The notes beneath the pieces are model-generated. The model saw only the letters and a program-made list of their open reading frames with translations. It ran no database searches and was not told the origin of the DNA. DNA of 32,000 bases from an uncultured Lentisphaeria bacterium. GTDB lineage: Bacteria > Verrucomicrobiota > Lentisphaeria > JABSQK01 > JAJFLO01. The position numbers were made by a program, and so were the translations under genes. The stretch covers positions 660,001 to 692,000 of the forward strand of contig OX638337.1 of NCBI GenBank assembly GCA_951812855.1, given 5' to 3'. Positions 1 to 27,569 of the stretch are shown piece by piece (position 1 is the stretch's first letter; every line of letters starts with the position of its first letter).

Positions 1-2
1 AC

Positions 3-152
3 GCAGGAAACTTGAGTGAGTTCTCATCCTTGACGGGATCCCTTGCGATTGGAAGGACTTCAAAATCCACCGTGGAGCTATTTGACGAAGCTACGAAGAA
101 CTTTCAAGAAGCGGAGTTCGAAGAGAGTCCCAATACCAGTCAGTATTTTTGA
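3..152 (+). CDS. 3' end of an unidentified gene running in from the left edge (partial)
   Basis: Only frame open from the window edge. It reads ...STVELFDEATKNFQEAEFEESPNTSQYF, then TGA at 150-152. It ends convergently 18 bp from the next gene. No family recognised. Confidence 0.25.
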   Translation, partial: AGNLSEFSSLTGSLAIGRTSKSTVELFDEATKNFQEAEFEESPNTSQYF

Positions 153-170
153 AAGGGGTGTCCGCTATTT

Positions 171-533
171 TTATAATAAGGTTACAATGACATTGGTCGT
201 TCTAATTATGACTAATAATTCATTGAGCAGTTTATAAAACCGCGTGTTGCCCAGTTCACCAATTTCACCTGCACCAAATTCATATTCTTTACTAATCGCT
301 GTATTCTCGACAGCAATTGATACAGATGAAAAAACCTTATCCTCCCCTTCATCATATTCCATACCCTGGATATCGAAGGACATATCATAACTTTCCGGTT
401 CTTTTATCTGGTCACAGCCTTCTATGTCAATTGACAGATGGTGATCAGAAAAGGAGTCCATTAACAGTTTTTTCAATTCAGAATAATTAATATCAATTTC
501 TTTTACATCTATAAATGCGGCGATTTTGATCAT
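171..533 (-). CDS. hypothetical small acidic protein (120 aa)
   Basis: Intact ORF in the track, Asp/Glu-rich (e.g. YDMSFDIQGMEYDEGEDK). It lies 37 bp downstream of ilvE on the same strand. No motif recognised. Confidence 0.5.
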   Translation of the reverse strand: MIKIAAFIDVKEIDINYSELKKLLMDSFSDHHLSIDIEGCDQIKEPESYDMSFDIQGMEYDEGEDKVFSSVSIAVENTAISKEYEFGAGEIGELGNTRFYKLLNELLVIIRTTNVIVTLL

Positions 534-570
534 TTTTCCCCAATGGTTTCAAGTGATAAAAAAAGTAATT

Positions 571-1587
571 CTACACGTCGGTTAACCAACCATGATTATC
601 AGGAAGTTCACCAAATTGAACAGCACGGACTTTTTCATACAAGTGTCCTAAAACCGGACCGAATCCAGTTTTCGGACCAACCTCAATAATTCGGTCACCG
701 CGTTCGATTCGATTAACTGGTGTAATGACAACTGCTGTGCCACAGGCCCCAACTTCAACTAAATCCTGTATTTCATCAAATTGAATGGGACGTTCTTCTA
801 TTTTCATTCCTGATTCTTTAGCAAGTGTCATTAATGATTTGTTCGTAATACTCTTCAATATCGAATTTGATTCAGGTGTGATGTAGGTGCCGCATTTCGT
901 AATAGCAATAAAATTTGATGTTCCAAATTCATCGATAAAACGGTTTTCTTTTGCATCCAGATATAAATTGATCGGATAGCCCATTTCCTGTGCGATCTTT
1001 CCGGGTTCCAAACCGGCCGCATAATTCCCGGCAACCTTTACCTGCCCGACACCGTTTGGAGCAGACCTGTCAAAACCGTCAATGACCACTGCACTGACCG
1101 GTTCAATTCCTCCCTTATAATAGTCGCTGACAGGCAGCACAAAAATTATAAAGGTATATTCCCCTGCCGGTTGAACGCCGATACGCGGTCCTGAACCAAA
1201 TAATAACGGTCTGATATATAACGAACCTCCGCTTCCATATGGCGGGACGTACTCAAGATTCTCACGGACAATTCGCCTTACAGCGTTCATGAACATCTCT
1301 TCTGGAATGGCAGGCATCAATATGCGTTTTGCCGTTCTCTCCATACGTCTGGCATTCTCTTCAACACGGAATATTTTTACCTTGCCGTCTTTACAGGTAA
1401 ATGCTTTTAATCCTTCAAAGGCTGCTTGTCCATAATGAAGTGCAGTGGCGGCAATATGTATGTTAAGATACGGATCCTCTTGAAGTTCTCCGCTATCCCA
1501 GCAACCATTTTTCCAGGTATAACATATATGGCTATTCGTATCCATATATGAAAAACCCAGTGATTGCCAATCAATCTCTTTATCCAT
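571..1587 (-). CDS. ilvE: branched-chain amino acid aminotransferase (fold-type IV PLP enzyme)
   Basis: 338-aa ORF whose length and sequence fit long-form BCAT. Matching segments: LHYGQAAFEGLKAF, YIRPLLFGSGPRIGV, VKVAGNYAAG, GTSNFIAI, GACGTAVVITPV. Confidence 0.9.
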   Translation of the reverse strand: MDKEIDWQSLGFSYMDTNSHICYTWKNGCWDSGELQEDPYLNIHIAATALHYGQAAFEGLKAFTCKDGKVKIFRVEENARRMERTAKRILMPAIPEEMFMNAVRRIVRENLEYVPPYGSGGSLYIRPLLFGSGPRIGVQPAGEYTFIIFVLPVSDYYKGGIEPVSAVVIDGFDRSAPNGVGQVKVAGNYAAGLEPGKIAQEMGYPINLYLDAKENRFIDEFGTSNFIAITKCGTYITPESNSILKSITNKSLMTLAKESGMKIEERPIQFDEIQDLVEVGACGTAVVITPVNRIERGDRIIEVGPKTGFGPVLGHLYEKVRAVQFGELPDNHGWLTDV

Positions 1588-1860
1588 AAAACAGTCTCAT
1601 TTTCAATAATTAAATCCAATACCTGAATTAAGCGGCTGGATTCTGTATTCAACGGAACTCTAACGGCCCTGAATCAGGTAATAAATAACTAAAAATCAAT
1701 CCTGGTTTCCAATCAGAATCAAAATTTAAAGCTAATACGGTTTTTGCCTAAAAACAATTCAATCATAAAAAGTTAATATCAGATTGTATACTCAAAATAG
1801 ATCCCGATATTATAGGGGTTTGATATTTCACTCAGCCAAAATAAAATACGCAGGTACTAA

Positions 1861-2406
1861 ATGATTTTCACGATTGCCGGAATTACCTTTGCCGTTCTAA
1901 TTATTTCAGCAGCTTTCAGTGTTTGGAAGATCTTTCCTAAAAATAAAGATTTATGGCGAATTATTCCTCGAGAAAAACGATTCGGCTCAGTGCTGGGGTT
2001 TATCTGCTTAATTTGGTCTGCTTATCATACCTTCCCCATCTTTGAAACAACTGCTCCTCAAGTCAGGCTTATGGTTTTGTCCGCGTTGGTTATTGTCATT
2101 ACTTTTTTATCATTTGATCTAATGGATTTCTTATTTACCCGGGCTTTGGGTGGATTCCTCTTACTGCTTGTTAACTGGTTATTGCATCAGGCGTTCGTTC
2201 ATCACACCGTATTCCGTCCTCTTTTCTCGATGTTGTGTTACATATTCGGAATATCAGGGATAATCATGATTGCCGCACCTTATCACTTCAGGGATTTATT
2301 AGAGAAAATCAGTCATGACTGCCGATGGAGATTATTTACATCAACGGTACTCGGCGTCATTGGCTGTATTGTACTTTTAATTTCAGTATCTCCCTATGTC
2401 AGGTAA
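1861..2406 (+). CDS. hypothetical polytopic membrane protein (181 aa, about 5 hydrophobic segments)
   Basis: Intact ORF with strongly hydrophobic segments. Its 3' end overlaps the rsmG start by 11 nt, suggesting co-transcription. No family recognised. Confidence 0.55.
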   Translation: MIFTIAGITFAVLIISAAFSVWKIFPKNKDLWRIIPREKRFGSVLGFICLIWSAYHTFPIFETTAPQVRLMVLSALVIVITFLSFDLMDFLFTRALGGFLLLLVNWLLHQAFVHHTVFRPLFSMLCYIFGISGIIMIAAPYHFRDLLEKISHDCRWRLFTSTVLGVIGCIVLLISVSPYVR

Positions 2407-3082
2407 AGAAAATCTTGAAAAAGACTACCCGATCCTGAAGGAACTGAGTATTTCCACTCCCCCTCAGCAATGGCAGAATCAAATTCTTCGCTGCCATGAA
2501 TTCCTGTGCCGGGAAAATAAGAAAGTAAATCTGACACGAATAACCTCATTTAATGACTATTTGGTTAAGCATATAATAGACAGTCTGCTTTTAGCTGCTT
2601 ATATGCCTGAGATAACATCAAAAAAATTAAACATTGCCGACGTGGGTTGTGGTGCCGGTTTCCCCGGTGTACCCATGGCTGTTTCCTATCCAAATTTAAC
2701 ATTGACAGAAATTGATTCAGTTAACAAAAAATATTTATTTGTGGAACAACTAATCCGTGAGCTAAAGCTTAAAAACTGTATCTCAACACGAGGCCGGGCC
2801 GGGGAGTTGGCACTTAAAACAGCATTTAAGTATCAATTTGATATTGTCATTGCCAGAGCAGTCACAGATGCTGCAACAATGATGATAGATTGTAATTTTT
2901 TCCTGAGAAGGCCGGATGGAGTCCTGATATTCTATAAAACGCCAAAGAAAATAAAAGAAGAAATCAGTGATGTCAACAAACAGGCTGAGATGTTGAAAAT
3001 GACTGCAACCCTGTCTCCTGAATTTAATTTGCCGCATGATATGGGAAAACGTCAATTTCTGGTTATCAGCCTTAATCGTTGA
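2396..3082 (+). CDS. rsmG: 16S rRNA (guanine527-N7)-methyltransferase RsmG/GidB
   Basis: GidB pattern: NLTRITSFNDYLVKHIIDSL, SAM motif I DVGCGAGFPGVPMAV, then DSVNKKYLF and FDIVIARAV. Confidence 0.85.
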   Translation: MSGKENLEKDYPILKELSISTPPQQWQNQILRCHEFLCRENKKVNLTRITSFNDYLVKHIIDSLLLAAYMPEITSKKLNIADVGCGAGFPGVPMAVSYPNLTLTEIDSVNKKYLFVEQLIRELKLKNCISTRGRAGELALKTAFKYQFDIVIARAVTDAATMMIDCNFFLRRPDGVLIFYKTPKKIKEEISDVNKQAEMLKMTATLSPEFNLPHDMGKRQFLVISLNR

Positions 3083-3093
3083 GATCCAACACT

Positions 3094-3825
3094 ATGGAAC
3101 CTGAGGATACAGATTCAGTACATAAAGAGATAAATTGGCAAATCCCTGCGATTTTGTTTACAATTGTTTTTGTAATCAGTGTGTCTCAAATCGTATATCA
3201 AATTGTTCCTGAAGACGTTTTAACAACCCCCGGCATAACATCAGTCTCAATTAATTTTGCAATGCTGCATGGCGTCTGCCTTCTTACAATATTGTCTACA
3301 ATTTTTATACTCGTACCTCGAGAATTATGGTGGCAAACCCTGAAACTTGACCAGCCCCCTAACCGGTCAATCTTATTCAAAGCACTCGGAACCACTGCAA
3401 TACTTATACCGATTGTTCAGGTGATTTTCGGTATAACTGTTTATTTCATGGTGAAATACGGAATTGAATTAACTGAAAATCCAATCGTCAACTGGATGAA
3501 AACAGCACCGGCAAATGTCATGTGTCTGATTATTTTCGGTGCAGTTGTGATTGCGCCGGCAACTGAAGAAATAATGTTTCGACTGGTCATTTATGAATGT
3601 CTGCTTAAAATTGGAAATTCAACGCTGGCATGTTATTTAACATGCCTGATTTTTGCAGTATTCCATATGATTCCCGAGCAGATTCTGCCACTGTTTATTC
3701 TCGCTGTTGTTCTACAAAAATCACTGCAGAAATCTAAATGTCTGTGGACTGCAATTTTGATTCATGCGTTTTTTAACAGTTTTGCAGTTGTCCTGACGCT
3801 ACTATATCGTTACCATATGACATGA
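3094..3825 (+). CDS. CPBP family intramembrane glutamic endopeptidase (CAAX protease/Abi family)
   Basis: All three CPBP motifs are present: EExxxR (ATEEIMFRL), FxxxH (FAVFH) and HxxxN (HAFFN), within a multi-TM protein. The track ORF starts at a TTG at 3079; I prefer the ATG at 3094 (MEPEDTD...). Confidence 0.8.
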   Translation: MEPEDTDSVHKEINWQIPAILFTIVFVISVSQIVYQIVPEDVLTTPGITSVSINFAMLHGVCLLTILSTIFILVPRELWWQTLKLDQPPNRSILFKALGTTAILIPIVQVIFGITVYFMVKYGIELTENPIVNWMKTAPANVMCLIIFGAVVIAPATEEIMFRLVIYECLLKIGNSTLACYLTCLIFAVFHMIPEQILPLFILAVVLQKSLQKSKCLWTAILIHAFFNSFAVVLTLLYRYHMT

Positions 3826-3847
3826 TATTAATCCGTCTGGCTCTGGT

Positions 3848-4519
3848 CTATATCGAAATAGCCAAGTAAACATCAAAGCCGGGAACAGGCGGCTGGACTT
3901 CTTCCCAGGTCTCTAAAATCCACTCATTATTTTTATCAATCATGACTCGATATTTACCGTCTTTTCCAACAAGTCGGTCATTGTATTGGCGTTCCAGGCC
4001 GGATACACCGACTTCATTTTCTTTTTGGACTGATGTTCGACCGATAATACGCTGAATATCCATTCTCTCAATAAGTTTTTCTCTTTTGAAGTTACTTTTT
4101 ACGTAAAATTGTGGATTTTCCTTCATAATCGGTTCTAATACGACTAACTCGGCAGCGGTAAGATTTGATTTGACTAAAACAATACTGTTTGCAGAAAAAT
4201 CACCTGACATGGACTGGTTTGATTTGATCAGTCTTTGCACCTTTCGAATATCTTCGGCGGCGGTATCTCGTCCTGTATTGACTTTATAATAGAGGGAAAA
4301 TTTTCGAACAGACCGGGCGATGAGTTTTCCATTACGATCGAGCAGTCGTCCGCGCAAAGCAGGTATTGTTCCGGTTTTCCAGGTTTTCCCCTTAAAATAG
4401 TTTACAAAATAATCGGTATCAGCCACAGTTATCTGATAACATCGTAACAAAATGATACCTGTCCAGATAAAAAATAAAATGATAAAAAAATTTATTCGTT
4501 TTTTTGCAAATAAATTCAT
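3848..4519 (-). CDS. membrane-anchored class-B PBP N-terminal (dimerisation/'pedestal') domain protein with no transpeptidase domain
   Basis: N-terminal TM anchor (FFIILFFIWTGIILL). It then aligns with the PBP2/FtsI non-catalytic module: ALRGRLLDRNGKLIA, GVSGLERQYNDRLVGKDG. It ends ...GFDVYLAISI*, where the transpeptidase domain normally starts. No SxxK, SxN or KTG motif. The start overlaps the upstream acyltransferase stop (ATGA). Confidence 0.7.
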   Translation of the reverse strand: MNLFAKKRINFFIILFFIWTGIILLRCYQITVADTDYFVNYFKGKTWKTGTIPALRGRLLDRNGKLIARSVRKFSLYYKVNTGRDTAAEDIRKVQRLIKSNQSMSGDFSANSIVLVKSNLTAAELVVLEPIMKENPQFYVKSNFKREKLIERMDIQRIIGRTSVQKENEVGVSGLERQYNDRLVGKDGKYRVMIDKNNEWILETWEEVQPPVPGFDVYLAISI

Positions 4520-5783
4520 AGCTCACTTTCAGAAGACTCAATACTGCAACCGCGCAACAATTGATACGGATAGATACTCCCGATATTTTGCCACTCATCC
4601 TGCATGTCTTTTGGAACTTCATGAGAAATTTGGTTATGCCAGGATTGAATTCGTTTGAGGGCCTCCTCACTTTTTGCTTTTCGAGAGTTTATTTGAGTCA
4701 ACATTGTATTACTCCCCAATAGAAAAAAAATCGACGTGATAATTACCGCTGAAATAATGGCTCTTACTCTATTTTTTAACAGATTTGCAGATTTACGCTC
4801 AATCCACATGTTAACTGCGTATGAACACCCCAACATTAGTCCCATTATACCCCAGAATACTATATGTTCGTTATATTCATGAAATTTTCTAAACAGAATA
4901 TAACCTATGTTTTGATGGATCAGATACAGCGGGTATGTCAAAATCCCAAGTTTTATCCAATTCAACTTTCGAAAACTACCAAGTTTTCGATCTGCGACCA
5001 TATACATAATCACAAAAAACAACGAGACAATCCCTGCAACAACAAACTCATTGACCCCCATGGCTTTGAGGTTCTCATTAGCAGGCACATCAAAAAATAT
5101 TTCGCAAACTGCGATCACCCAACAACCGCACAATCCAGCCAGTTTCTTAAACGAGCTCCCATCACGCCACAACAGGTAAAATAAAGAACCCGCAATAAAG
5201 TAACACGCATACACATCAATCAAAATAAATCTCACCAATTTCGGAGCCTCCACAAAAGTCATAATGCCAGCAATCACCAACCAACAGTACAGTATATTTT
5301 CGGATCGATGCATTTTCCGTAATGCCAAAACAATACCCACTAAACCATAAAACTTTAATTCGACTTTCAAAGTCCAATACACCCCGTCAATTGAATCAAC
5401 CCCGACAAAACCATGAAGCATAGTCATGTTCACCAAATACTGGAACAGCGTAGCTGAATAATATTCTCCACCGAGGAATAAAATGACCACAAATGTCACC
5501 GTACAACATGCCCAATATGCTGGATACAATCGTGAAACTCTGGAAGCTATAAACTTGCCTAATGACCCACCTTCTACACTCATGAAAATCACGAAGCCAC
5601 TGATCATAAAAAACAGTTCCACTCCAAGGTAGCCATAACACAAAAATGAGGAAAACTGGGTATATGATGGTCCTACCCCCCCCCCCCGTAAGTTTGACTC
5701 CTCACGCAATAGTGAAATAGCACAACTGCCAGAGCAGCAACAAATCTCAACAAGTCAATTTCGTTAACTCTTTCCTTAACCAT
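4516..5783 (-). CDS. acyltransferase family 3 (OafA/OatA-like O-acyltransferase), reading frame interrupted at a G12 tract
   Basis: AGGAG lies 6 nt before the ATG at 5783. That frame gives MVKERVNEIDLLRFVAALAVVLFHYCVRSQTYGGGG, then TAG at 5675-5673. The track ORF 4516-5709 continues in another frame (GVGPSYTQFSSFLCYGYLGVELFFMISGFVIF... with many TM segments). Joined, the two pieces give the full Acyl_transf_3 architecture. One extra G or two fewer G restores a 422-codon ORF. Confidence 0.8.
5676..5687 (-). repeat. homopolymeric G12 tract (C12 on + strand) inside the 5' end of the acyltransferase gene
   Basis: Counted directly: 12 consecutive C at 5676-5687. It sits exactly at the frame break between the two acyltransferase pieces. 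Confidence 0.95.
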
Positions 5784-5828
5784 TTTTCTCTCCTAATTGA
5801 ATAATTCATGGTATTCTCCGATCATATG

Positions 5829-5852
5829 AAGTTATACATAAATGTATAACTT
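5829..5852. promoter_or_regulatory. perfect inverted repeat AAGTTATACAT-AA-ATGTATAACTT, candidate operator in the acyltransferase promoter region
   Basis: 11-bp arms with no mismatch and a 2-bp spacer, 46-69 bp upstream of the ATG at 5783. It overlaps TATAAC/TATGAT -10-like hexamers on the gene strand. Confidence 0.45.
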
Positions 5853-6379
5853 TAATTCAGTAAATCAATATTATTGAGTGTACTCTCAAATAAAAATTAT
5901 GAAATGGCAGTCAATCAGAAGGAATTTGAATGAGCGAAAAAACTGAGGAACCTACGATTTTTATGGACAACAATTCCCCGGGCATTGCATCCGAAGGTTC
6001 GAGTGAACATCATAAAGTTGAAGGCGAAATTCGGGTATGAACCGGATGAATCATTCTGGTAGACAGTAAAGGCAGCAGCAGTCAGGGAAAGCGTCAAAAT
6101 CTGAACTTGCTTAAAGCGAGTAACAAGGTAAGTTATGTGTGAATCTTCTAAGGGTTATTCCGTCTGAAAAACGGAAAAAGACCAGAAAAGACCAAAATTT
6201 AAGGACAATAACAACCAGAAATCACTGCAGGTGGCTGGAAATTTAACCATTGAAGGATAATCTCCAAATGAGATGTTTAGTGCAAACAAAGGTCTCAGCA
6301 TGAAATACAAAGCAGAGATTGATGGTTTAACAGGGCTGCTGCGGAACAAAGATAATTCTTAGAATAATGGGGGAGTAAT

Positions 6380-7090
6380 ATGCATAGAGATAAAAAACTT
6401 GAGTTAATTAAAAATATATTTTTTCGTTCTTCAATCAAAGATTTTTGGTTTCACGTCTTAAAGTCATATGCACAGCCACATTTTGAAGTTTTAGAAATTG
6501 GTTCGGGTTCAGGTGAAGGTAAACAAAACACCGTGTATCCAACTGTCCGAAAAATTGTTGGACTGGATTTGGATGAAAGAGTTCTGAGAAATCCCTTCCT
6601 GGATGAATCTTATAACATGAATGCATATGAAATTGGCACAAAATTGGCTGACACTAAGTTTGACATCATTTATTCTCATATGGTGGCTGAACACATTGAT
6701 GATGGCTTGAGGTTTATTTCAACGCAATTAAACGCCCTAAATGATGGTGGTGTTTTAATACACTCCACAGTCTCTAAATACTATTGGACATGCTTAATCA
6801 ATGATTTAGTACCCGAAAGCGTCAAGCACTGGTTAATTAGAAAATTAGGGAGCGGAAGGGCTGCAGAGGATGTGTTTCCCGCACATTATGAATTGAACTC
6901 AACGCACCAAATAGAAAAAATTTGTAGTAGTTGTAATGCTGAATACAAGATATTGAGACAAGATGAGCCGCCAGGTTATTTACGGCGAAGCATACTCTTA
7001 ATGCTCCTTTATACTCTGTTGCATAAACCGTTACAGTTTTTAATTCCATCTATTCGTCCAACGTTTATCTTTGTAGTTTCCAAAAAATGA
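6380..7090 (+). CDS. class I SAM-dependent methyltransferase
   Basis: GGGGAG lies 5 nt before the ATG. Motif I is VLEIGSGSGEG, followed by an acidic loop VGLDLD, then FDIIYSHMVAEHIDD and GGVLIHST (Methyltransf_11/23-like layout). Substrate unknown. Confidence 0.8.
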   Translation: MHRDKKLELIKNIFFRSSIKDFWFHVLKSYAQPHFEVLEIGSGSGEGKQNTVYPTVRKIVGLDLDERVLRNPFLDESYNMNAYEIGTKLADTKFDIIYSHMVAEHIDDGLRFISTQLNALNDGGVLIHSTVSKYYWTCLINDLVPESVKHWLIRKLGSGRAAEDVFPAHYELNSTHQIEKICSSCNAEYKILRQDEPPGYLRRSILLMLLYTLLHKPLQFLIPSIRPTFIFVVSKK

Positions 7091-7223
7091 CGAATTCGAT
7101 CCTGAAATATTCGGATAGTCTTACTTTAGTTCGCATATCCGATAAGATAACAGAAATGTAGTGTAAACTTACCTTCTTTTCATTAATCAATTTTCTAAAA
7201 GGAATATTCAGCAAATTGAAGCC

Positions 7224-8348
7224 ATGTCATCATCAAAGCAGCAAAATTATACATTAGATCACATTGTTAAATTCGCTGTTATCTCGGGAATTCTCGCTGG
7301 GTTAACCTGGTTATTGGGATATTTAAGTGACGTTTTAATTCCCTTTATCATTGCATTTCTTTTCGCATATTTACTCCATCCAATTGTCTGTTTTGTACAG
7401 AAAAAAATTCCAAATCGTGCACTGGCAATATTTGTCGTTTTATTTGGAGTCCTGGCTCTGGTCATTGGATCGAGTTATATAATCATACCAAAAATCAACC
7501 ATGAAATTTCGCATACTGGAAAACTGCTTAAACGCTTTGTTGAAGATAAAGAATTTGCGGCGAAAGCAACAAAATTTATTCCGCCTAAACTAGTTGAATC
7601 AGTAAAAGAAAGAGTATCAAAGGATAATTTAATTGAACTCATGCAGCAGGAAAAGTTCTGGGTTATTGTCCAGTCAGGATTCAAAAAGGCAGCACCCGGG
7701 GCACTTGATTTATTGTCCGGCACCGCAAGCTTTTTTACGGGAATACTGGGATTATTCATCATGGGTTTATATCTGGTGTTTTTACTGTTAGACTACGAAA
7801 AAGTAAAAAAGGAATGGGAGAGTCTGGTACCCGAGAAACTGCGTGCACCCATTTTTGAGTTTGTTGATGAATTTGATCGTTCAATGAATCGTTATTTCAG
7901 AGCTCAGGCACTGGCTGCCTTCTGCACTGGAATTGTCTTTGCAATCGGATTTACCATCATTGGATTACCAATGGGAATTTTTTTAGGACTGTTTCTGGGG
8001 CTCCTGAACATGGTGCCGTATTTACAAATTGTTGGAATTGTACCGGCGGCGTTGTTGGCCTTTATGAAGTCTCTGGAAACAGGAACGAGTTTCTGGCAGC
8101 TAATGGGATTGATTCTCATTGTGTTTGTAGTTGCACAGATTATACAAGATGTTATTTTAACACCAAAAATTATGGGCGGACTGACAGGATTAAGTCCGGC
8201 AATGATACTGTTATCCATCTCTGTCTGGGGAAAATTGCTTGGATTCCTCGGATTGGTTATCGCAATTCCCATAACCTGTTTAACGTTAGCGTATTATCAC
8301 CGTATATCAGCCTCTCAGAATGACGTAATCAGTGAGTTGGCAGAATAA
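7224..8348 (+). CDS. AI-2E family transporter (PerM/YhhT/UPF0118)
   Basis: 374 aa with about 8 TM segments and the family-typical layout: N-terminal LIPFIIAFLFAYLLHP, a central soluble loop, and a C-terminal half with NMVPYLQ and VAQIIQDVILTPKIMG. Confidence 0.85.
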   Translation: MSSSKQQNYTLDHIVKFAVISGILAGLTWLLGYLSDVLIPFIIAFLFAYLLHPIVCFVQKKIPNRALAIFVVLFGVLALVIGSSYIIIPKINHEISHTGKLLKRFVEDKEFAAKATKFIPPKLVESVKERVSKDNLIELMQQEKFWVIVQSGFKKAAPGALDLLSGTASFFTGILGLFIMGLYLVFLLLDYEKVKKEWESLVPEKLRAPIFEFVDEFDRSMNRYFRAQALAAFCTGIVFAIGFTIIGLPMGIFLGLFLGLLNMVPYLQIVGIVPAALLAFMKSLETGTSFWQLMGLILIVFVVAQIIQDVILTPKIMGGLTGLSPAMILLSISVWGKLLGFLGLVIAIPITCLTLAYYHRISASQNDVISELAE

Positions 8349-8402
8349 CTTATACCAGATAGAAAAACTGGATTTGAACCATAAAATTTTTATGAGGTTT
8401 TT

Positions 8403-9194
8403 ATGGCTGAATACGAAAATCATTTATATGCAATTATTTTCCCGAACCAGGGCCTGATCACATCACAATTAGGTCCCGGAGAATTTGGAAAACATTATGC
8501 AGTTGGAAGTTCTAAACATTTCGACGGGAAAGTTGTCTTTGTTGAAATTGACAAAAATTTGGAAGACGGATTCTTTCCATTAAATGAAATCTGGAAACAC
8601 GTTGTACCCCACGAAGACGGGACACCAAAACGAACAAAATTTGCCGGCAATTATCGAGTCCTCGAAAATATTCCTCTGGATAAATTTAAAGACATGTATC
8701 TGGTTACGGTTGAAGGAAAGACTCTAAAACTCAGTCGATCGAAATACACCATTGACAATGAAAAGGGATTAATCCGGGTTTATCAAATGCTGAATCCAAT
8801 TCAAATGCTGGTTGGAAGTCGACTGGATCAACGGAACTTTGGCGAATATTTTACTCGGGAAAATACGACCAAAGGCTGCCCGACGTTGTGCTACACACAA
8901 GTCAGTCTTGATGTTGCTGAGTTTGAACGAATATACGAAAATGATGAAACCAATTATTTAGTTCTTCCTAATATTCCGAACAATAAGCTGAAGGAATGCA
9001 TTGAGGAAATGAAAATGAATCCAGAAAAAAAGAGTACGACGATTAGTCTGGCCTCTATTTTTCAGGATCTCCATTTTCTAAAATTACGACATGGATTCTG
9101 GATTGCCAGCGGCAATGATCTCATTTTTTATCCGCTTCCCGGTATCAATGAGTTGGAAAACGAATTTTACGACTGGTACCGTTCGACTTTTTAA
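8403..9194 (+). CDS. hypothetical soluble protein (263 aa), no family recognised
   Basis: Intact ORF with GAGG 7 nt upstream of the ATG and coding-like composition. No TM segment, P-loop or metal motif that I can identify. Confidence 0.65.
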   Translation: MAEYENHLYAIIFPNQGLITSQLGPGEFGKHYAVGSSKHFDGKVVFVEIDKNLEDGFFPLNEIWKHVVPHEDGTPKRTKFAGNYRVLENIPLDKFKDMYLVTVEGKTLKLSRSKYTIDNEKGLIRVYQMLNPIQMLVGSRLDQRNFGEYFTRENTTKGCPTLCYTQVSLDVAEFERIYENDETNYLVLPNIPNNKLKECIEEMKMNPEKKSTTISLASIFQDLHFLKLRHGFWIASGNDLIFYPLPGINELENEFYDWYRSTF

Positions 9195-9348
9195 GTATCA
9201 GATCATTAAATTCCGTTTTCCCGGCGTAAGTGTTACTATCTAATTTTTGAATTTCCTCCTGCGGATCATTTGCATTCTATAAATCATAGATTTATGCTTC
9301 TGCTTTTTCTTAAAAAACCGCTTTCTATTTTACGGAGGATTTTTCAAT

Positions 9349-10527
9349 ATGAGCAAAGGTAATCTCGTAGTAGGACAATCCGGCGGCGCCACTGCTGTCA
9401 TTAATCAAACTCTTGTTGGAATTATCCGGCAGGCACAGGCTGAAGAAAAGATCAATCGAATTTTAGGAATGCGATTCGGCATACTTGGATTAATCGAAAA
9501 AAATTTTGTTGATCTTACAGATATGACAGAAGAACAGTTGCTGCAATTAGAACAAACCCCATCAGCAGCACTATGTTCCTGCAGGTACAAATTGCAAGAT
9601 TCAGAAAATGATACCTTACTTGATGCAATCGAAAAAAATGGGATAAATTATTTTACATTGATCGGCGGCAATGATTCTGCAGAGACTGCCTTACACATTT
9701 CAAAACTTGCACAAGCACGCAATATTGATCTTTCCGCTGTTGCACTGCCAAAAACAATCGACAATGATCTCCCTTGTATGGACCACACCCCCGGATATGG
9801 AAGTGTCGCCACATTTATCGGAGCATCAACTCAGGAAGCAGGCCGGGATACTGAAGCAATGCAGCAGGCTGATCCAATAAAAATCATTGAAGTTAAAGGA
9901 CGTAATTCAGGTTGGACAGTTGCCTCATCGGCATTGGGAAAACGAAGTAAATTTGATGCACCTCATTTGATTTATTTTCCAGAACGTCCCTTTGATGAAG
10001 ACACCTTTGTTGAGGATGTCACCAAAGTTTATAAGGACATTGGATATTGTGTTATTGTTATAGCTGAAACCTTAAAAGACAAAACCGGACGATTAGTCGG
10101 TGAACGTAAAGAAGGAATTACCAGGGATCCCTTCGGTCATGCCTATGTAGACAGTGCAGCAGCCTGTTTATGCCGTTTAATTGAAGGTAAATTGGGTGTC
10201 CGTGCACGATATGACAAGCCGGGGACACTGCAAAACAGCTCAATTCGATATATTTCACCCGTGGATCAAGCCGAAGCACAGATGTGTGGAAAAAAGGCTG
10301 TCAGCCTTGCAGCCGGTGGAAAAACAGATGTTATTGTAACATTAGAACGCGAATCAGATAATCCTTACAAATGTACAACCGGTTACGTTCCCATCGAAAA
10401 AATTGCAGGTATCGAAAAATATATGCCTGAAAATTATATCAATGAAGCCGGGAACTTTATCACCCAGGATTATATTGACTATGCAAAACCTTTAATTGGA
10501 AAAATTCCCGAATTTATTCGGCTTTAA
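9349..10527 (+). CDS. pfp: 6-phosphofructokinase family enzyme, probably diphosphate (PPi)-dependent
   Basis: GGAGGA SD. Matching segments are GQSGGATAVIN, GGNDS (Asp where ATP-PFKs have Gly in GGDGS), PKTIDNDL (Lys where E. coli PfkA has Gly) and MDHTPGYGS. Both classical phosphoryl-donor discriminator positions are the PPi type. Confidence 0.8.
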   Translation: MSKGNLVVGQSGGATAVINQTLVGIIRQAQAEEKINRILGMRFGILGLIEKNFVDLTDMTEEQLLQLEQTPSAALCSCRYKLQDSENDTLLDAIEKNGINYFTLIGGNDSAETALHISKLAQARNIDLSAVALPKTIDNDLPCMDHTPGYGSVATFIGASTQEAGRDTEAMQQADPIKIIEVKGRNSGWTVASSALGKRSKFDAPHLIYFPERPFDEDTFVEDVTKVYKDIGYCVIVIAETLKDKTGRLVGERKEGITRDPFGHAYVDSAAACLCRLIEGKLGVRARYDKPGTLQNSSIRYISPVDQAEAQMCGKKAVSLAAGGKTDVIVTLERESDNPYKCTTGYVPIEKIAGIEKYMPENYINEAGNFITQDYIDYAKPLIGKIPEFIRL

Positions 10528-10545
10528 ACACAGGAGATTACATAT

Positions 10546-13188
10546 ATGCCATCCGGATTCACTGATGAATTGGTTGAGATAGAACAACTCGCTGCAGACT
10601 GCCTGAATAATGATTCGGCCGATACAGGAACAGGACCCAATGTGAAATTTCTCGATAACGGCTATGTATTATGCCTGCCGAGAACAAAAGGTGACAGCCG
10701 CTATGTTTATGGTGACGATGGATTTAATTTCTGGATCCATGCCTCTGGATATATGTATGCAAATGAAGGATTGTATTCATTATTCATGCGTCGAAAAGAA
10801 GGTGATGAACCGGTAATATCCTTCTTTGCCGGTCTGCCGAATGAAGACGGCAAAACCTTCACCCGGATATCACTGCTGCCGGTACCAGTCATAGAAGAAT
10901 CTGATGTGTTAATTAAACGCCGTTATACCATTATGAACAATAGTGCGGCCTATTTTTTTACCGAATTCAGTTCAATTAAAAGTGTTGTTCGGATCTCTGT
11001 TGACAAAGCAAATAAAATGATCTTCTCTGTTCATATTGAAAACAAAGGTAATGAAACTGTGTCTATATACACCTCGAGTTACTTCAAACCGTTTTGCAGA
11101 TATGATATTTACGAAAGCGATGAAGACCGTTGGTTCAGCGAAACTATTCTGAATAATTCAGCCGACAATAATGGAGATTTTGCTGCCGGCACCCTGGAGG
11201 TTGCACAAGATGAAGACCGGTTTCATTCGAATACCTACTATGCAGTGTTACGTGGAAAATATACACCGGGGAAAGGGATTCAATTCGTTAATCGGGATAC
11301 AAACACATCACGTCAGAATTTTGTTGGAAACAGCCAACGAAATTTGGGAACGAGCATCGCCTTGAAACGGGGTAAGTTTTCAAAGGACAAATCACTTACA
11401 ACATTTACCGACATCGCAGTATTCAGTGATATAAATTCCTTCAATTTAGCTGAAAACACCGTGTTGCGCTTAGACTACACCTACCAGATTGCACCCGATA
11501 AAGAAACTCGGGATACGGTGGTCAAAACGCCTCTGAATCCCCGGGAAATCGATACAAATATTGCATCAACAACTGACAAAAACAAAACAATGTTGTCCAG
11601 CCTTAATGGAAACATTTCAGGACTGAACAACAGCTTAAATATTAATGAAAAATTTTTCAATGCATTTTTTGATCACTTAAAATACCAGGTATCCGTATGC
11701 GGTCTACTGAAAGGATACATGCAATTAGAACTTCGATCATTAATAGGTATCAGGGATGTTTTTCAGGCACTTGAGGCACTGCAGTATTATCGAACGGACG
11801 AAAGTAGAAATAAAATGATTGAAGCATTGGGTTTTACAATCCCTACCGGTCGATGCGTTCGTCAATATTCACTTCCTCCCGGGGGTTCACAGGCTGGACG
11901 GGCCGATTTACGCCCCTTCATTGACCAGGGAGTATGGGTTATTTCTACAATTCATTCTTATTTACAAAATACCGGTGACAAAGATTTTCTCGAAACTGAG
12001 GTTGGGTATCATGATATTATTGACGAAGGATCTGAAACCATTCTTCCGTCCGATAAGAGAGACAGCGTACTCATGCATATCTTCCGAATCATGGATTATC
12101 TGAATGAGAATCGTGATCACAGCAAAACAAAATTACTGCTTGCCCTTTACGGAGACTGGAATGATGCACTTGACGGTTTAGGCATTGCAAATGATCCAGA
12201 AAAAGATTATGGAACCGGAGTCAGTGTCATGACGACCCTTCAATATTATCAAAACTGCCTGGAAATGATTAAAATTCTAAACTCATTTTATCCGGGGAAG
12301 TATGAAGAAAAAATTAACCAATACCGGGAGACAGCTGATTCCATAGCAGAAAATCTGATAAAGTACGCGGTAATCAGTGATGAAGAGGGGAATAAACGAA
12401 TTGTTCATGGCTGGGGTGATGAACGTTCTTATTTTGTAGGCAGTTTTAATGATCCCGATGGCGTCGCCCGGGATGGTCTGACAAGCTATTCATTTTGGAT
12501 CATTTCAGAAATGTTAGAAAAAACTCCTGAACTGGAACAAACCATTTTAGATGCATTTGAGAGAATGCAGTCAAAATATGGATTAATGACATTTAATCCG
12601 GCATTTCCAAAGGGAACTGAAGGCGTCGGACGTATTCCAAAACTACCCCCGGGAACCGCCGAAAACGGTGCAGCTTACATACATGCAACATTGTTCGCAA
12701 TCTGGGCTTATTTTAAAATGGGCCAACCTCAAAAAGCATGGGATCAGATCGAAAAGATTTTACCATTCACCAATATTCATGACCGCTACACCCACTCCCC
12801 GTATGTTATGCCAAATTCTTATGTATACAATCCTGAAAAAGGACTGGATGGAGAATCAATGAATGATTGGCAGACGGGCAGTTCCAATGTTCTCTTAAAA
12901 ATCATGATCTGGTATGTATTCGGTTACCGCCCGGATTTTGACGGAATCTATATTCAGCCGGCATCCTGGACACCGTTTGAGGAATCAAATTTTTCGACCC
13001 GAAGCAGAGGAAAAGTCATTGAAATAGTCTATAAAAAAGAAAGCACTGCAGATAAAAGAGCCTTCTCCCTAAATGGACAAGATCCAATAACAGGTGACTA
13101 TTCCAGTGCATTGAAAACAAATTACTGTTTTATCCCATATGAAGAATTGAGTGACAAGAATACAATTATGGTTATTGATCCGGGTTAA
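10546..13188 (+). CDS. GH94-like (alpha/alpha)6 glycoside phosphorylase superfamily protein, substrate unknown
   Basis: 880 aa, AGGAG SD, 18 bp after pfp. It has LYGDWNDALDG (the DWND catalytic-Asp motif of cellobiose/chitobiose phosphorylase-type enzymes) and PGTAENGAAYIHAT (the ENGGxYxHA phosphate-binding His motif). The size fits N-terminal beta-sandwich + barrel + C-terminal jelly roll. Confidence 0.65.
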   Translation: MPSGFTDELVEIEQLAADCLNNDSADTGTGPNVKFLDNGYVLCLPRTKGDSRYVYGDDGFNFWIHASGYMYANEGLYSLFMRRKEGDEPVISFFAGLPNEDGKTFTRISLLPVPVIEESDVLIKRRYTIMNNSAAYFFTEFSSIKSVVRISVDKANKMIFSVHIENKGNETVSIYTSSYFKPFCRYDIYESDEDRWFSETILNNSADNNGDFAAGTLEVAQDEDRFHSNTYYAVLRGKYTPGKGIQFVNRDTNTSRQNFVGNSQRNLGTSIALKRGKFSKDKSLTTFTDIAVFSDINSFNLAENTVLRLDYTYQIAPDKETRDTVVKTPLNPREIDTNIASTTDKNKTMLSSLNGNISGLNNSLNINEKFFNAFFDHLKYQVSVCGLLKGYMQLELRSLIGIRDVFQALEALQYYRTDESRNKMIEALGFTIPTGRCVRQYSLPPGGSQAGRADLRPFIDQGVWVISTIHSYLQNTGDKDFLETEVGYHDIIDEGSETILPSDKRDSVLMHIFRIMDYLNENRDHSKTKLLLALYGDWNDALDGLGIANDPEKDYGTGVSVMTTLQYYQNCLEMIKILNSFYPGKYEEKINQYRETADSIAENLIKYAVISDEEGNKRIVHGWGDERSYFVGSFNDPDGVARDGLTSYSFWIISEMLEKTPELEQTILDAFERMQSKYGLMTFNPAFPKGTEGVGRIPKLPPGTAENGAAYIHATLFAIWAYFKMGQPQKAWDQIEKILPFTNIHDRYTHSPYVMPNSYVYNPEKGLDGESMNDWQTGSSNVLLKIMIWYVFGYRPDFDGIYIQPASWTPFEESNFSTRSRGKVIEIVYKKESTADKRAFSLNGQDPITGDYSSALKTNYCFIPYEELSDKNTIMVIDPG

Positions 13189-16252: not shown

Positions 16253-17287
16253 TCATTTAAAATTTATGCGCGGATCAATTAGGACATAACAAAAATCAGA
16301 AAGAATATTCCCTGCCAGAGTCAGAATTGATGTTAATGATAAAATCCCCATAAATACAGCGTAGTCCCGACCGACCATGGCATCCAGGCTTAACAGCCCC
16401 ATTCCCGGGATTTCAAATACTCTTTCGATGATGACAGATCCGACAAACATGATACTCAGTACACTGCCAAAACCTGTTGCTATAGGAATCATCGCATTAC
16501 GAAGGGCATGTCCCCAGACAGCCAGACTGAAACTTCCTCCTTTGGCAATAACTGTACGGATATAATCTTTACCTATCTCATCAAGTAGAGAATTTTTCAT
16601 TAATAACGTGAGAACAGCGAACTGACCGATCATATAGCATAAAACCGGTAAAAACATATGACTGAAAATGTCTTTGACTTTTCCAAAAAATGAAAGAGTA
16701 TGAAAATTATCAGAATAGAATCCCGCGATTGGAAAGATATCCCAGAATTGATCACTGGTTCCACAGAGAAGCATTTTCAACATCATACCAAATGCAAAAG
16801 CAGGGATTGCATAGCCGGAGAAAACAATTAAACTTGAGGAAAAATCAAATAACCCGCCATTTCGAACTGCCTTTACAATGCCGAGCGGGATACAGATCAA
16901 ATACGTTAAAACAAAGCTTGTAATACCAAATATCAAAGAAATCGGAAAACGTTCCTTTATAAGCTGCCAGGCAGTTTTATTCGGGAATTTATAGGATTCC
17001 ATTGACATGCCGATTCGATCGGTAATCAGCCATTTCCCATAACGTTGATACAGCGGCTTGTCGAAACCAAAATGAACCTTTAATTCTTCCAGATACTCTT
17101 CCGAAACTGTTGATGATACATTCGCTGCACCCGCCTCACCAATACCCATGCCTTTCATTTTCATAACCATTTGCTCCATGGGCCCGCCAGGTACAAACTG
17201 GCACAATGAAAAGCATATAAATGTAATTCCGATAAACGTTGGAAAAACAAGGAGAAGTCGTCGAATAAAATAGGTAAGGCGATCCAT
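16253..17287 (-). CDS. yejB: ABC transporter permease, YejB/OppB-like
   Basis: YFIRRLLLVFPTFIGITFICFSLCQFVPGGP, HFGFDKPLYQRY, LMKNSLLDEIGKDYIRTVIAKG and YVLIDPRINF are collinear with YejB. Confidence 0.9.
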   Translation of the reverse strand: MDRLTYFIRRLLLVFPTFIGITFICFSLCQFVPGGPMEQMVMKMKGMGIGEAGAANVSSTVSEEYLEELKVHFGFDKPLYQRYGKWLITDRIGMSMESYKFPNKTAWQLIKERFPISLIFGITSFVLTYLICIPLGIVKAVRNGGLFDFSSSLIVFSGYAIPAFAFGMMLKMLLCGTSDQFWDIFPIAGFYSDNFHTLSFFGKVKDIFSHMFLPVLCYMIGQFAVLTLLMKNSLLDEIGKDYIRTVIAKGGSFSLAVWGHALRNAMIPIATGFGSVLSIMFVGSVIIERVFEIPGMGLLSLDAMVGRDYAVFMGILSLTSILTLAGNILSDFCYVLIDPRINFK

Positions 17288-17439
17288 TTAATAAAATCCG
17301 AATTCCATTAAGTTATCGACTCTCGTCAGAGTTAAATTTGAGGTTTCGAAATAAAACCAGAACTTCCAAACCTTATTCGAAAATTTAGAGAGATAAAAAC
17401 AGCATATACTGAACATAATAGACAATTCAAAAAAATTAT

Positions 17440-19212
17440 TTATTTATAGTTCGTGTCAAACTGTACTGTAAGAGGTTTAGGGGGCAGGGAAACTTTTTGA
17501 TCCATAGCATCTTCAAGGTCAGCAGCAGAATCTTCATCATACCACCAATAACTGTAAGCTGCTTTCTCTCGACCATATTTATCAAGAACAGTTTGAGGCA
17601 TACCGAATTTATTCCAGTAGAGTAATCTAGTGTAATTGATGTTCCAAAGCAGAACATAGGGATAGGTATGATAAACAATTTTATCGATTTTTTTCGCCAG
17701 CCTGTGTCGTGTTTGAATATCAAAAATTCTTTTTTGCTGATCGATAAATTTGTCAACATCTTCATTCTTGAAACCGGTAACATTATTTCCAGCTTTTCGA
17801 TCAGCCTCCTTTGATGCCCACATTCCTTCGGGGTCTTTATAAAGTGAGGCACCCCACGAAGCCCAGGTCATATCAAAGTTGAATTGATCCATATCTTTCG
17901 ACCAGGCGGCCCAGTCTTTCCGGTTGATCTCCAGTTTGATGCCAACATCTTTCAGGTCTTCGCTATAAATCGATAAAAATTTGTCGACTGACATATCTCG
18001 CGTCAAAAACTTGAATCTAAACGGAATCCCATCCTTCTCGAGTATTCCAGTCTTTGGGTTACCCTGCCAACCCGCTTCTTTTAACAATTGCCTGGCTTTA
18101 TCTTTATCAAATTTTATAAATTCATTGGTACAGGGCACCTCATCAGAATAAAGGTCCTCATAATATGACTTGTGAAGAAAATATTGATCATACATCAATG
18201 TTTTATTCATTTTTTCACGATCCAGTAAATGAGCCATTGCCTGTCTGACTTTTATATTACTAAAAATAGGTTTGCGCATATTCATTGCGAACCCCTGAAA
18301 ACCCACTGGAGAATAATTATAAACTTTTTGTTTTACTATCCAGTTTTTATCAAATTTTTCCCCTTTTGTTTCATTAACCCACAGCCGTGCTGTATAGACC
18401 GGATACAAATCAATTTGTCCTTTCTTAAATGCCTCAAATGCATTCTGACGATCTGCAAAAAACTTAAATGTTAAGGTTTGAAAATTACCCGTTCCCTGAC
18501 TGCGCTTCGCTGCTTTATTCCAATAATTGGATCGACGCACCAGTTTTACATACATTAATTCTCTTACTTCACCAATTTTATAGAGTCCGGATACCACAGG
18601 AAATTCAAAATTTATTTTATTAAAATCCTGTTTCTCAAAACTGTGTTTTGGTAATATTTCCAATGCTCCTATCGCCAATAAATTACTCCAATGAACTTCT
18701 CTTGCAGTGAAACTGATTTGGTGGGAATCTATAATCTTCGGAGAATGAAATTTTTCGAGAGATACTTTATGAACTCCCGTTAGATTCCCGGGATTCATAA
18801 TGGTATCAAATGTCCACTTAATATCGGCAGCAGTAATGGGTGTTCCATCACTCCATTTCGCCTTTTTATTCAGCCAAAATGTGAACACTGATTTGTCATC
18901 TGAGATTGACCACTTCTCAGCAATTAGCGGCTCTTCAACAAGAGTCAAAGGATTCCGGCTGAGCAGAGTATCGTACATGGCCGAAAACAATTCAGCACTG
19001 AAACTGTTGTTGTCCAGATAATAGTTAAAACTTTGAGGATTTTGTCCCGCGAAAATATTAATATTGCCACCGACTTCTGCATCAGAGCCGGCAAGCGGGT
19101 TGAGTTGATCTTTCCAGTCATTTCTCGGGAAAAAATCATCCGGGAAAGATGAAAATAATATTAAATAATAAGCAAAAATCAAGGCTGTAGTTTTCATTAA
19201 ATAAATCTGCAT
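17440..19212 (-). CDS. yejA: ABC transporter substrate-binding protein, family 5 (YejA/OppA-like)
   Basis: 590 aa with an N-terminal signal-like segment (MKTTALIFAYYLILFSS; the true start may be the ATG at 19197). SBP_bac_5-type sequence and YejA-like length. It heads the permease/ATPase operon. Confidence 0.85.
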   Translation of the reverse strand: MQIYLMKTTALIFAYYLILFSSFPDDFFPRNDWKDQLNPLAGSDAEVGGNINIFAGQNPQSFNYYLDNNSFSAELFSAMYDTLLSRNPLTLVEEPLIAEKWSISDDKSVFTFWLNKKAKWSDGTPITAADIKWTFDTIMNPGNLTGVHKVSLEKFHSPKIIDSHQISFTAREVHWSNLLAIGALEILPKHSFEKQDFNKINFEFPVVSGLYKIGEVRELMYVKLVRRSNYWNKAAKRSQGTGNFQTLTFKFFADRQNAFEAFKKGQIDLYPVYTARLWVNETKGEKFDKNWIVKQKVYNYSPVGFQGFAMNMRKPIFSNIKVRQAMAHLLDREKMNKTLMYDQYFLHKSYYEDLYSDEVPCTNEFIKFDKDKARQLLKEAGWQGNPKTGILEKDGIPFRFKFLTRDMSVDKFLSIYSEDLKDVGIKLEINRKDWAAWSKDMDQFNFDMTWASWGASLYKDPEGMWASKEADRKAGNNVTGFKNEDVDKFIDQQKRIFDIQTRHRLAKKIDKIVYHTYPYVLLWNINYTRLLYWNKFGMPQTVLDKYGREKAAYSYWWYDEDSAADLEDAMDQKVSLPPKPLTVQFDTNYK

Positions 19213-19229
19213 AGGGAATTAAAACCAAC

Positions 19230-19264
19230 ATCTACACACACGTGCACTGGTACTGTGTATAGAT
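19230..19264 (-). promoter_or_regulatory. imperfect hairpin/inverted repeat in the yejA leader
   Basis: ATCTACACACA (19230-19240) and TGTGTATAGAT (19254-19264) pair at 10 of 11 positions around a 13-nt loop that itself contains GTGCAC. It lies 18-52 nt upstream of the annotated start. Confidence 0.25.
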
Positions 19265-19817
19265 ATGTCGGCGGAACAAATAAATGTCTGGAATTAATTC
19301 TTCACAGAGAATTAATCACGTCATTATAGTAAATGTAACCGTTAGCTGTTTTGAATCATTAATAAGACAACCGGGTATCCGGCTTACCATCATTATGATT
19401 GTCGACTTCCTGACCGAGATGTAGAGCAACCGTCATCCTGTGCCGGCTACCGAAAAAATGGTGATTGTTGATAGTGAGAAAAGAATAATTATTTAAATAT
19501 AAGCACAAAACTTTAACCTCTCTGGTTTCAAACGGTCTTATAATCCAGTGAATTGCAATTGTCTATTTAGGGTCGTAAACAATTACAAGGTTTTTAATCA
19601 GTGCAAAATTAAATTTGCTCAATATAATAGATTTTATCATTTTCATGTCAAGATGTTATTATAACTGATTTTGGATGCAACAGTCATTTAACTAACTGAA
19701 TAAACCTCGCCAATGTCAGGTCATTATAAAATACTAATCGCCCAGGGCATTAAGTTTAATGACACTTTGATCCGGGAGAATGGCCGCATTCAGCAAGTAT
19801 TGAGTGAAACTAAAAAA

Positions 19818-27505: not shown

Positions 27506-27569
27506 AAAAATATAGACGCAACTCTACCTATAGGCCTCCCTGTTCAGGCAGTATTGTACAAAATTAATA

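Follow-up and report, generated by a model that had tools for sequence, protein, structure and literature searches.

Why does an acyltransferase gene in an AT-rich bacterial genome carry an unbroken run of 12 G's near its start, placed such that the gene, as assembled, is divided between two reading frames? The question is raised by a stretch of 32,000 nucleotides from an uncultured Lentisphaeria bacterium (contig OX638337.1, positions 660,001 to 692,000, assembly GCA_951812855.1), which we call the window, and in which an acyltransferase-3 (AT3) gene on the minus strand is interrupted by a poly-G tract. An earlier reading of the letters alone, referred to here as the original prediction, had proposed that the tract is a phase-variation switch. 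We find that the tract is a true hypermutable simple-sequence repeat in the 5' coding region of the AT3 gene, and slipped-strand switching that turns the gene ON and OFF, as in pglI of Neisseria, is the explanation that we favour, with a probability of roughly one half. The evidence for hypermutability is good, and switching itself is a good but unproven candidate. The elements at the 5' end of the gene and in its AT3 part are as follows.

5790..5794, minus strand: Shine-Dalgarno (SD) sequence AGGAG, 6 nt before the ATG at 5783; read directly.
5673..5783, minus strand: N-terminal open reading frame (ORF) fragment of 36 codons plus TAG, containing AT3 transmembrane (TM) helix 1 with R13-X10-H24.
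5676..5687, minus strand: poly-G tract, G12 on the gene strand and C12 on the plus strand; read directly.
5673..5675, minus strand: zero-frame stop TAG, abutting the run in the G12 allele and in the G18 allele described below.
4789..5676, minus strand: AT3 body, residues 37 to ~332 of the protein repaired with G13, shifted to the -1 frame with respect to the start codon; RXXR is R82 and R85.

Along the minus strand, the coding order is an ATG at 5783, 32 codons, four GGG codons (5687-5676) and the TAG, while a second frame is open from 5709 to a stop at 4518-4516, a length of 397 codons. The original prediction had placed these elements correctly (AGGAG-N6-ATG 5783, G12 5687-5676, TAG 5675-5673, second frame to 4516) and was right that the gene is out of frame in its assembled state, with the TAG directly after G12. 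It had also stated that G13 or G10 would restore one ORF, and when the tract was replaced in silico, these lengths indeed gave products of 422 and 421 aa, respectively, and G16 gave 423 aa. With G9 and G12, translation ended at the TAG right behind the run, a rule that also covers G15, and for the G18 allele the stop after the run could be read directly in a sister haplotype. Tracts of G11 and G14 led to a wrong-frame product of 128-129 aa. A change in repeat number alone is therefore enough, in silico, to toggle an ORF that is otherwise intact and that carries no other lesion in either haplotype.

The tract begins 96 nt into the ORF as an uninterrupted repeat, and it is out of character for its surroundings, just as had been noticed at the outset: it is the sole G or C run of at least 7 nt within the 32-kb window, in a Lentisphaerota genome of ~1.95 Mb and 38% GC. 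By our own arithmetic, ~1e-4 G/C runs of 12 nt would be expected in the window by chance, and the A/T runs of the window reach a maximum of 9. Further G/C runs of at least 8 nt were absent from ~50 kb of the host genome and from 21 kb of its relatives. The codon involved is unusual as well, since GGG is the least used Gly codon in the window (14.6%) and the tract consists of four to six consecutive GGG codons.

That the interrupted gene encodes an AT3 enzyme is clear from the repaired 422-aa protein, for which the original prediction had proposed a search against PF01757 (Acyl_transf_3). The match runs from end to end (residues 7-325, profile positions 2-325 of 326) with 100.3 bits against a cut-off of 31 and E=1.5e-28. 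The 36-aa fragment alone matched profile positions 2-30 with E=1e-4, below the curated cut-off; with its R13-X10-H24 it is the AT3 N-terminus, so the tract splits the AT3 gene as had been claimed. Both R-X10-H in TM helix 1 and RXXR in TM helix 3 are essential AT3 motifs (PMC9833829). In an alignment of 19 homologues that are 43-50% identical by BLASTP (Lysobacter, Marilutibacter, Pseudomonas, Verrucomicrobiales and others), R13-X10-H24 upstream of the tract and R82-V-S-R85 downstream of it all fall in invariant columns. Because R13-X10-H24 lies before the tract, any protein initiated downstream of it would be devoid of the catalytic helix. The catalytic domain is otherwise intact: 72 of the 77 columns that are invariant among the 19 homologues are retained, the five changes are conservative, and no additional stop or frameshift was found in the AT3 part of either haplotype, over ~300 codons of AT-rich sequence. 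The AlphaFold model of the repaired protein, built on this alignment, is confident and all-helical (pLDDT 82.4, pTM 0.78). A Foldseek search against the PDB returned nothing at E<=0.001, and the top entry by probability was human HGSNAT (8vlv_A; probability 0.96, TM-score 0.39, E 0.28).

The same model and alignment also show where the tract falls in the protein. The Gly run that it encodes sits in a loop between the helix of residues 7-31 (TM1) and that of residues 42-70 (TM2), and residues 33-39, which comprise this run, are the only low-confidence stretch apart from the extreme C-terminus. In all 19 aligned homologues a Gly run is absent from this position, where the consensus is R-G-Y-A-A-D-x-x-S-x-M-P-Y-P, and a loop encoded with G10 would equal theirs in length; as the loop is unconserved and of low pLDDT, extra Gly residues should be tolerated. 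Among 30 homologous reference-genome loci, GC-rich ones included, none had a G/C run of at least 8 nt within the AT3 gene. Taken together, the missing Gly run, the missing G/C runs and the rare GGG codon indicate a lineage-specific feature of the DNA in a tolerant loop, and the retention of the tract as GGG codons, with no Gly run in homologues, indicates that it is maintained at the level of the DNA and not of the protein.

The strongest evidence that the tract is hypermutable comes from a second haplotype. The truncated AT3 protein is present on three contigs, namely, the 1,947,381-bp contig held by NCBI/ENA, ptg000035c (1,941,460 bp) and atg001435l (47 kb), of which the latter two belong to ENA analysis ERZ18545485. 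The ptg and atg names are in the style of hifiasm (primary circular and alternate linear contigs, respectively), which makes PacBio HiFi the probable source of the data. Three alternate contigs (atg001435l, atg002803l and atg001122l) match the window at 100% identity and the circular primary contig ptg000035c matches it at 99.5-99.6%, from which it follows that two closely related strains coexist in one sample. In ptg000035c the tract is G18, compared with G12 in the window. We compared the two haplotypes over 25.6 kb (window 1-10577 and 17001-32000). The first part contains 50 substitutions and one indel, which is the tract, and the second contains 54 substitutions and three indels; of the 108 differences in total (104 substitutions plus 4 indels), the largest indel and the only coding one is the tract. 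The other indels are of 1-2 nt and all intergenic, at 17364 (TT/T), 24042 (T6/T8) and 24097 (TT/TTT); the T6/T8 difference is situated between an EF-G-like gene and the ORF that follows. All coding homopolymers, and the runs of A8 and A9, are the same in both haplotypes. The flanks of the tract are identical save for a synonymous GGA-to-GGG change at 5671, and the AT3 gene as a whole differs by 2 substitutions in 1.27 kb. A tract that is the sole coding indel amid identical homopolymers points to hypermutability of this tract and not to generic homopolymer noise. If the length changes in steps of +/-1, at least six events would have occurred at the tract against 0.004 substitutions per site, which would correspond to a hypermutability of at least ~1000-fold. 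The comparison of tract length in close relatives that the original prediction had suggested thus gave a clear difference, G12 versus G18 at ~99.5% identity.

The two allele lengths, 12 and 18, are multiples of three, which puts both out of frame in the same phase. Each of the three public gene calls begins at the internal Met60 or Met68 and gives a protein of 355-363 aa, and as a result these calls miss both the catalytic helix and the gene fusion described below.

We propose the following mechanism. Slipped-strand mispairing during replication would alter the number of G's. Lengths of the form 3n+1 (10, 13, 16, 19) would join TM helix 1, with its R-X10-H, to the body and yield an active acyltransferase; lengths of the form 3n, such as the 12 and 18 of the alleles seen, would stop translation at the TAG; and lengths of the form 3n+2 would give a nonsense product of 128-130 aa. 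A population could in this way switch the acylation of a putative envelope glycan ON and OFF, heritably and reversibly, with ON cells expected to arise among OFF cells and possibly put to adaptive use. The OFF state would probably be leaky, as RNA polymerase and ribosomes are expected to slip on 12-18 G's.

Poly-G switching of an AT3 acyltransferase is already a known kind of event, and what is new here is the phylum together with a probably host-associated, sponge-type lineage, the fusion of the gene to a second one at the head of a stub division cluster and the unexplained out-of-frame phase shared by both alleles. The closest parallel is pglI of Neisseria (NMB1836, the pilin-glycan O-acetyltransferase), which likewise belongs to the AT3 family and has an uninterrupted poly-G in its ORF whose length change shifts the frame and turns the enzyme ON or OFF. 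The pglI gene is of the AT3-SGNH type with a genic phase-variable tract of G(9-15) (PMC5953494), compared with G12 and G18 here. However, PglI acts on a known glycan in the pgl pathway, whereas in our gene the C-terminal partner is a 90-aa bitopic protein of a division-cluster position; moreover, Neisseria carries dozens of tracts with documented ON and OFF alleles, in contrast to one tract in ~50 kb and OFF alleles only in the present case, and belongs to the Pseudomonadota and not to the Lentisphaerota. A second parallel is oafA of Haemophilus influenzae, the lipooligosaccharide O-acetylase, an AT3 gene in which repeat number also changes inside the ORF; it is phase variable through its repeat and was initially noticed in frameshifted form in a reference genome (PMC9558356). 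Unlike our gene, oafA has a tetranucleotide repeat, proven heptose III O-acetylation, a proven role in serum resistance and no gene fusion. The poly-A tract of inlA in Listeria monocytogenes is comparable in that a homopolymer near the 5' end leads to a very short truncated product, but that tract is poly-A/T of ~7-8 nt, whereas the one studied here is G/C of 12-18 nt in an AT-rich genome. Such 5' homopolymer tracts act as reversible inactivators, with reversion ~1000 times the point-mutation rate (PMC2831843).

A part of the original prediction that found no support is the link to surface glycans: no glycan-synthesis gene was found among the neighbours and no NCBIfam subfamily matched the AT3 protein. 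Another part needs to be redrawn: the second frame had been read as the rest of the enzyme down to 4516, and the frame is indeed open that far, but the AT3 part ends near codon 333 and the remainder (4788-4516) is a separate gene, orf90, that has been fused to it. This gene and the one that follows it are located as follows.

4516..4788, minus strand: fused orf90 module, the last 91 codons, with a TM helix and ~60 aa; stop TGA at 4518-4516; homologous to a stand-alone 90-aa protein.
3848..4519, minus strand: PBP_dimer-only gene of 223 aa, an FtsI/PBP2 N-terminal module, whose ATG overlaps the TGA of the fusion (ATGA).

Over its final 93 residues, the repaired ORF shares 59-63% identity with a bitopic protein of 90 aa that is encoded on its own in relatives, for which the neighbouring genes are available from GCA_021772675.1, GCA_012271395.1 and GCA_011087705.1. 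In these relatives (L038, L040 and L041), mraZ, the 90-aa gene (5732-6004 in L038, 1207-1479 in L040) and the PBP_dimer gene follow each other, each overlapping the next, and form the head of a stub dcw cluster. Codon 1 of orf90 is the exact point at which DNA homology to the relatives sets in. At this junction the relatives read AAGGAGA-N5-ATG-AAT and the window reads ...CGTAAATCT-GCA-AAT, which means that the SD and the ATG of orf90 (now GCA) have been replaced, in frame, by the 3' end of the AT3 gene. Downstream of the junction synteny is kept (PBP-dimer, CPBP protease, rsmG, orf181, BCAT, orf120); upstream of it there is no similarity to the relatives by DNA or tblastx. The break covers window ~4790-6379 versus 3183-5750 of L038, the AT3 gene and a 600-nt intergenic region standing where the relatives carry mraZ; upstream of its mraZ, L038 has a 2-kb stretch without credible ORFs. 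No mraZ was found in the 32-kb window, and by tblastn no AT3 orthologue or remnant was found in the relatives, in which the orf90 part alone gave matches.

In the orf90 protein, a basic tail at the N-terminus is combined with a TM helix. Like FtsL, which is encoded between mraZ/rsmH and ftsI, it is a small bitopic protein whose gene in the relatives stands between mraZ and the PBP_dimer gene. Because it matched no Pfam family at E<=10, and hence no FtsL model, we term it an FtsL-position protein and not FtsL. The 223-aa protein consists of a TM helix and the PBP dimerisation (pedestal) domain without a transpeptidase, and its PBP_dimer-only orthologues in relatives (73%, 67%, 42% and 35% identity) show that it is a real gene and not a remnant. 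Known AT3-SGNH proteins consist of a 10-TM AT3 domain, an extra TM helix and a periplasmic module (PMC9833829). The fusion protein would resemble this layout in OafA, OafB and OatA, with AT3, the orf90 TM helix and ~60 putatively periplasmic residues, as judged from the sequence and the AlphaFold model; unlike in those proteins, the appended module is not SGNH (it has no Pfam match) and has its homologue in a separate protein encoded between mraZ and an FtsI-like gene in relatives.

The fusion and the translational coupling to the PBP-dimer gene change what a frame switch would affect. Near the junction, the only ATGs in the body frame are 4809, which has no SD, and 4704, which has GGGGAG-N7 but lies beyond the orf90 TM helix, and consequently the anchored form of orf90 could hardly be produced unless the AT3 body is translated. 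A shift of frame at the tract should therefore alter the amount of membrane-anchored orf90 and, by coupling or polarity, the supply of the PBP-dimer protein, so that the state of the frame would be expected to change the output of both genes as well as acylation. Located at the head of the stub dcw cluster, such a change may affect division or envelope proteins, unlike at classical contingency loci. In the same window, ftsA and a divergent ftsZ are found at 28268-30801 on the plus strand, 23 kb from the stub cluster at the mraZ position, which shows this genome's division genes to be dispersed.

Several observations weigh against ON/OFF switching. Two alleles were obtained from all searched data, which are sparse, and both are OFF in the same phase. 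A full-length in-frame (ON) product was absent among 5.8 billion protein clusters; an exact look-up of 10 predicted products, for G9-G21, in a collection of 15 billion proteins returned the G12 fragment only; a DNA-pattern scan of JGI metagenomes across the tract gave 0 matches, and a JGI protein-pattern scan with the orf90 alignment gave only the contig already known. The AT3 homologue search also returned nothing between 50% and 100% identity. The proposed switch had thus been right in that tract length differs and the ORF is otherwise intact, but an ON allele was not found in the searched databases, and together with the shared phase this means that reversibility and use as a switch are inferred. 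In addition, a conserved orf90 without a start of its own needs the body frame to be translated, which agrees poorly with a consensus that is OFF in the two haplotypes; this shared out-of-frame phase, despite a conserved fused domain that needs translation, is the puzzle of the locus. Contingency-type tracts, of which classical phase-variable organisms have many, were not seen elsewhere in ~50 kb. Next to the window, the same strain has an ordinary frameshift pseudogene, HinfI-like, from which it follows that gene decay is ongoing in this genome. Finally, the tract lengths come from apparent HiFi assemblies, and errors of +/-1 are common in long homopolymers.

The alternative that survives best, which we nevertheless consider unlikely, is that of a recent pseudogene, in which a horizontally acquired AT3 gene was inactivated by a homopolymer frameshift in a shrinking genome, the tract drifts neutrally, and orf90 and the PBP-dimer protein are made from internal starts. 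This explanation is in line with two out-of-frame alleles and with the truncation of every public call to 355-363 aa; the HinfI-like gene beside the window was broken in the same strain by a 1-nt deletion outside any homopolymer, insertion sequence (IS) genes of the rve type are nearby, and the AT3 gene appears accessory, since the nearest relatives have no orthologue and carry mraZ in its place. In-frame ATGs for the internal starts exist at 4809 and 4704. On the other hand, the AT3 gene has not decayed, with its 72 of 77 invariant residues and no extra stop in ~300 codons, and the tract is uninterrupted in both alleles despite the AT-rich background. Anchored orf90 would be hard to obtain from either ATG, as 4809 has no SD and 4704 lies past the TM helix. 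The haplotypes differ by just 0.4-0.5%, and for this reason the lack of decay decides neither way.

Two side observations concern the DNA just outside the window. The HinfI-like gene (PF09520), just beyond window position 1 (~11020-11025 in L032 versus ~11000 in L031), is intact in ptg000035c with 264 aa and split into 58 + 211 aa in the window haplotype, where GGGATAG has become GGGA-AG. Downstream of the window end, just past the epimerase gene, the haplotypes carry different transposase fragments (HTH_Tnp_1, rve; 15709-15966 in L036 versus 11844-12819 in L037), which suggests IS activity or decay.

A further alternative, whose probability we put slightly lower, is that the 3n state is the normal one and that the AT3-orf90 protein is made by recoding, through a -1 slip of the ribosome, RNA-polymerase slippage that adds one G, or both; drift of the tract in steps of three may then leave the outcome unchanged. 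One feature within the gene bears on this.

5698..5703, minus strand: internal GAGGAG, SD-like, located 10 nt upstream of the run's first G and consisting of the rarest Arg codon, AGG, and AGT; read directly.

The locus resembles the -1 programmed ribosomal frameshifting of dnaX, the G7 run of herpes simplex virus (HSV) thymidine kinase and slippage on runs of at least 9 nt: there is a slippery run, a stop right after it, a candidate SD-like stimulator ~10 nt upstream and a needed product in the -1 frame. In dnaX of Escherichia coli, an SD-like stimulator is located ~10 nt 5' of the -1 site. In our gene, G GGG GGG stands in the zero frame with the body frame at exactly -1, so that every heptamer of the run permits perfect re-pairing, and a slow-to-decode TAG is proposed in the A site. 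In some dnaX genes the shift site is immediately followed by a zero-frame stop, HSV thymidine kinase is rescued by a low level of frameshifting on a run of G7, and runs of at least 9 nt lead to heterogeneity in transcript length (PMC5009743). The internal GAGGAG encodes the invariant Arg28 by AGG, a codon used for 27 of 363 Arg residues; in 26.5 kb of coding DNA there are 12 copies of AGGAG, and the chance of meeting one within 7 nt is ~0.3%. Recoding would also account for the translation of the body frame, which is required in some way by a conserved orf90 without its own start, and for the shared phase of the alleles, both with TAG abutting the run, for which the chance is 1/3.

However, two alleles make the shared phase weak evidence, and the SD-like motif was noticed post hoc. 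Unlike dnaX-type sites, the locus has no 3' stem-loop: the 101 nt after the run have a minimum free energy of -19.4 kcal/mol (z=0.18 versus shuffles), and no 3' stimulatory structure was found in them. A run of 7 nt would suffice for recoding, and one of 12-18 nt is far longer than needed and a liability at the DNA level. There is also no orthologue with the same arrangement to show conservation. A related possibility, to which we give a little less credit still, is that the 3n tract is the working state: by the fusion, a conserved division-cluster protein, orf90, would have come to depend on the translation of an acquired AT3 gene, and -1 ribosomal slippage, transcriptional slippage or both would act as a throttle on AT3-orf90 and the coupled PBP-dimer gene, an envelope and division operon in a sponge-associated lineage. 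The GAGGAG would then be the upstream stimulator and the TAG the stop at the end of the run, with tract length tuning the slippage rate and no binary switch.

The doubt about tract length leads to an explanation that seems to us improbable, namely, that the HiFi consensus miscounts a real tract by one or two bases and that the true alleles are in frame (e.g., 13 and 19) with the gene intact. PacBio circular consensus sequencing is documented to miscall long homopolymers even at top quality, and more so with increasing length (PMC11878640), and the contig names ptg000035c and atg001435l are in hifiasm style. The difference of 6 nt, a multiple of three, is what selection for an open frame would be expected to produce. 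Nevertheless, the other coding homopolymers (A8, A9 and T6-T8) agree between the assemblies over 25.6 kb, and the window contig and the hifiasm alternate contig are both G12, though probably derived from the same reads; an error would also require a miscount of the same size in two tracts of unequal length, and the shared phase that it would explain arises by chance in one case out of three.

The remaining candidates can be dealt with briefly: an old pseudogene is unlikely with 72 of 77 invariant residues retained, and generic homopolymer or assembly noise (the haplotypes agree at A8, A9 and every coding homopolymer), protein-level selection for poly-Gly (every codon is the rare GGG, and 19 homologues have no such run) and inheritance of the tract along with the AT3 family (0 of 30 homologous loci) are ruled out.

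Provided that ON/OFF switching is confirmed, the Lentisphaerota would here gain their first described contingency locus of the repeat-mediated kind, as far as our literature searches show; among the papers that these searches listed, none dealt with repeat-mediated phase variation in this phylum. The arginyl-tRNA synthetase (ArgRS) of the window shares 54-58% identity with proteins labelled Lentisphaerae, Lentisphaeria or Victivallales, and 77% and 74% with those of two further relatives. The nearest relatives occur on short contigs of large assemblies (JAAHTH010028165.1 for L041 and WLWI01018177.1 for L040), and GCA_011087705.1, the JAAHTH assembly, is a metagenome of the marine sponge Mycale hentscheli (PMC7196800), which suggests a sponge- or host-associated clade. 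Variable acylation of the envelope could then matter in sponge symbiosis, for example, in evading recognition by phages or by the host.

Some minor features of the locus can be added. A promoter scan returned one weak minus-strand site at 5848-5821 that does not exceed the expectation from shuffled sequence. The AT3 gene is a mild compositional outlier, with a GC content at third codon positions of 41% versus 33.5 +/- 4% in other genes, which is consistent with acquisition in the past. Window 5001-6000 is the 1-kb bin with the strongest GC skew (-0.30) and AT skew (+0.23) of the window, and this peak falls where the AT3 gene has its G- and T-rich coding strand.

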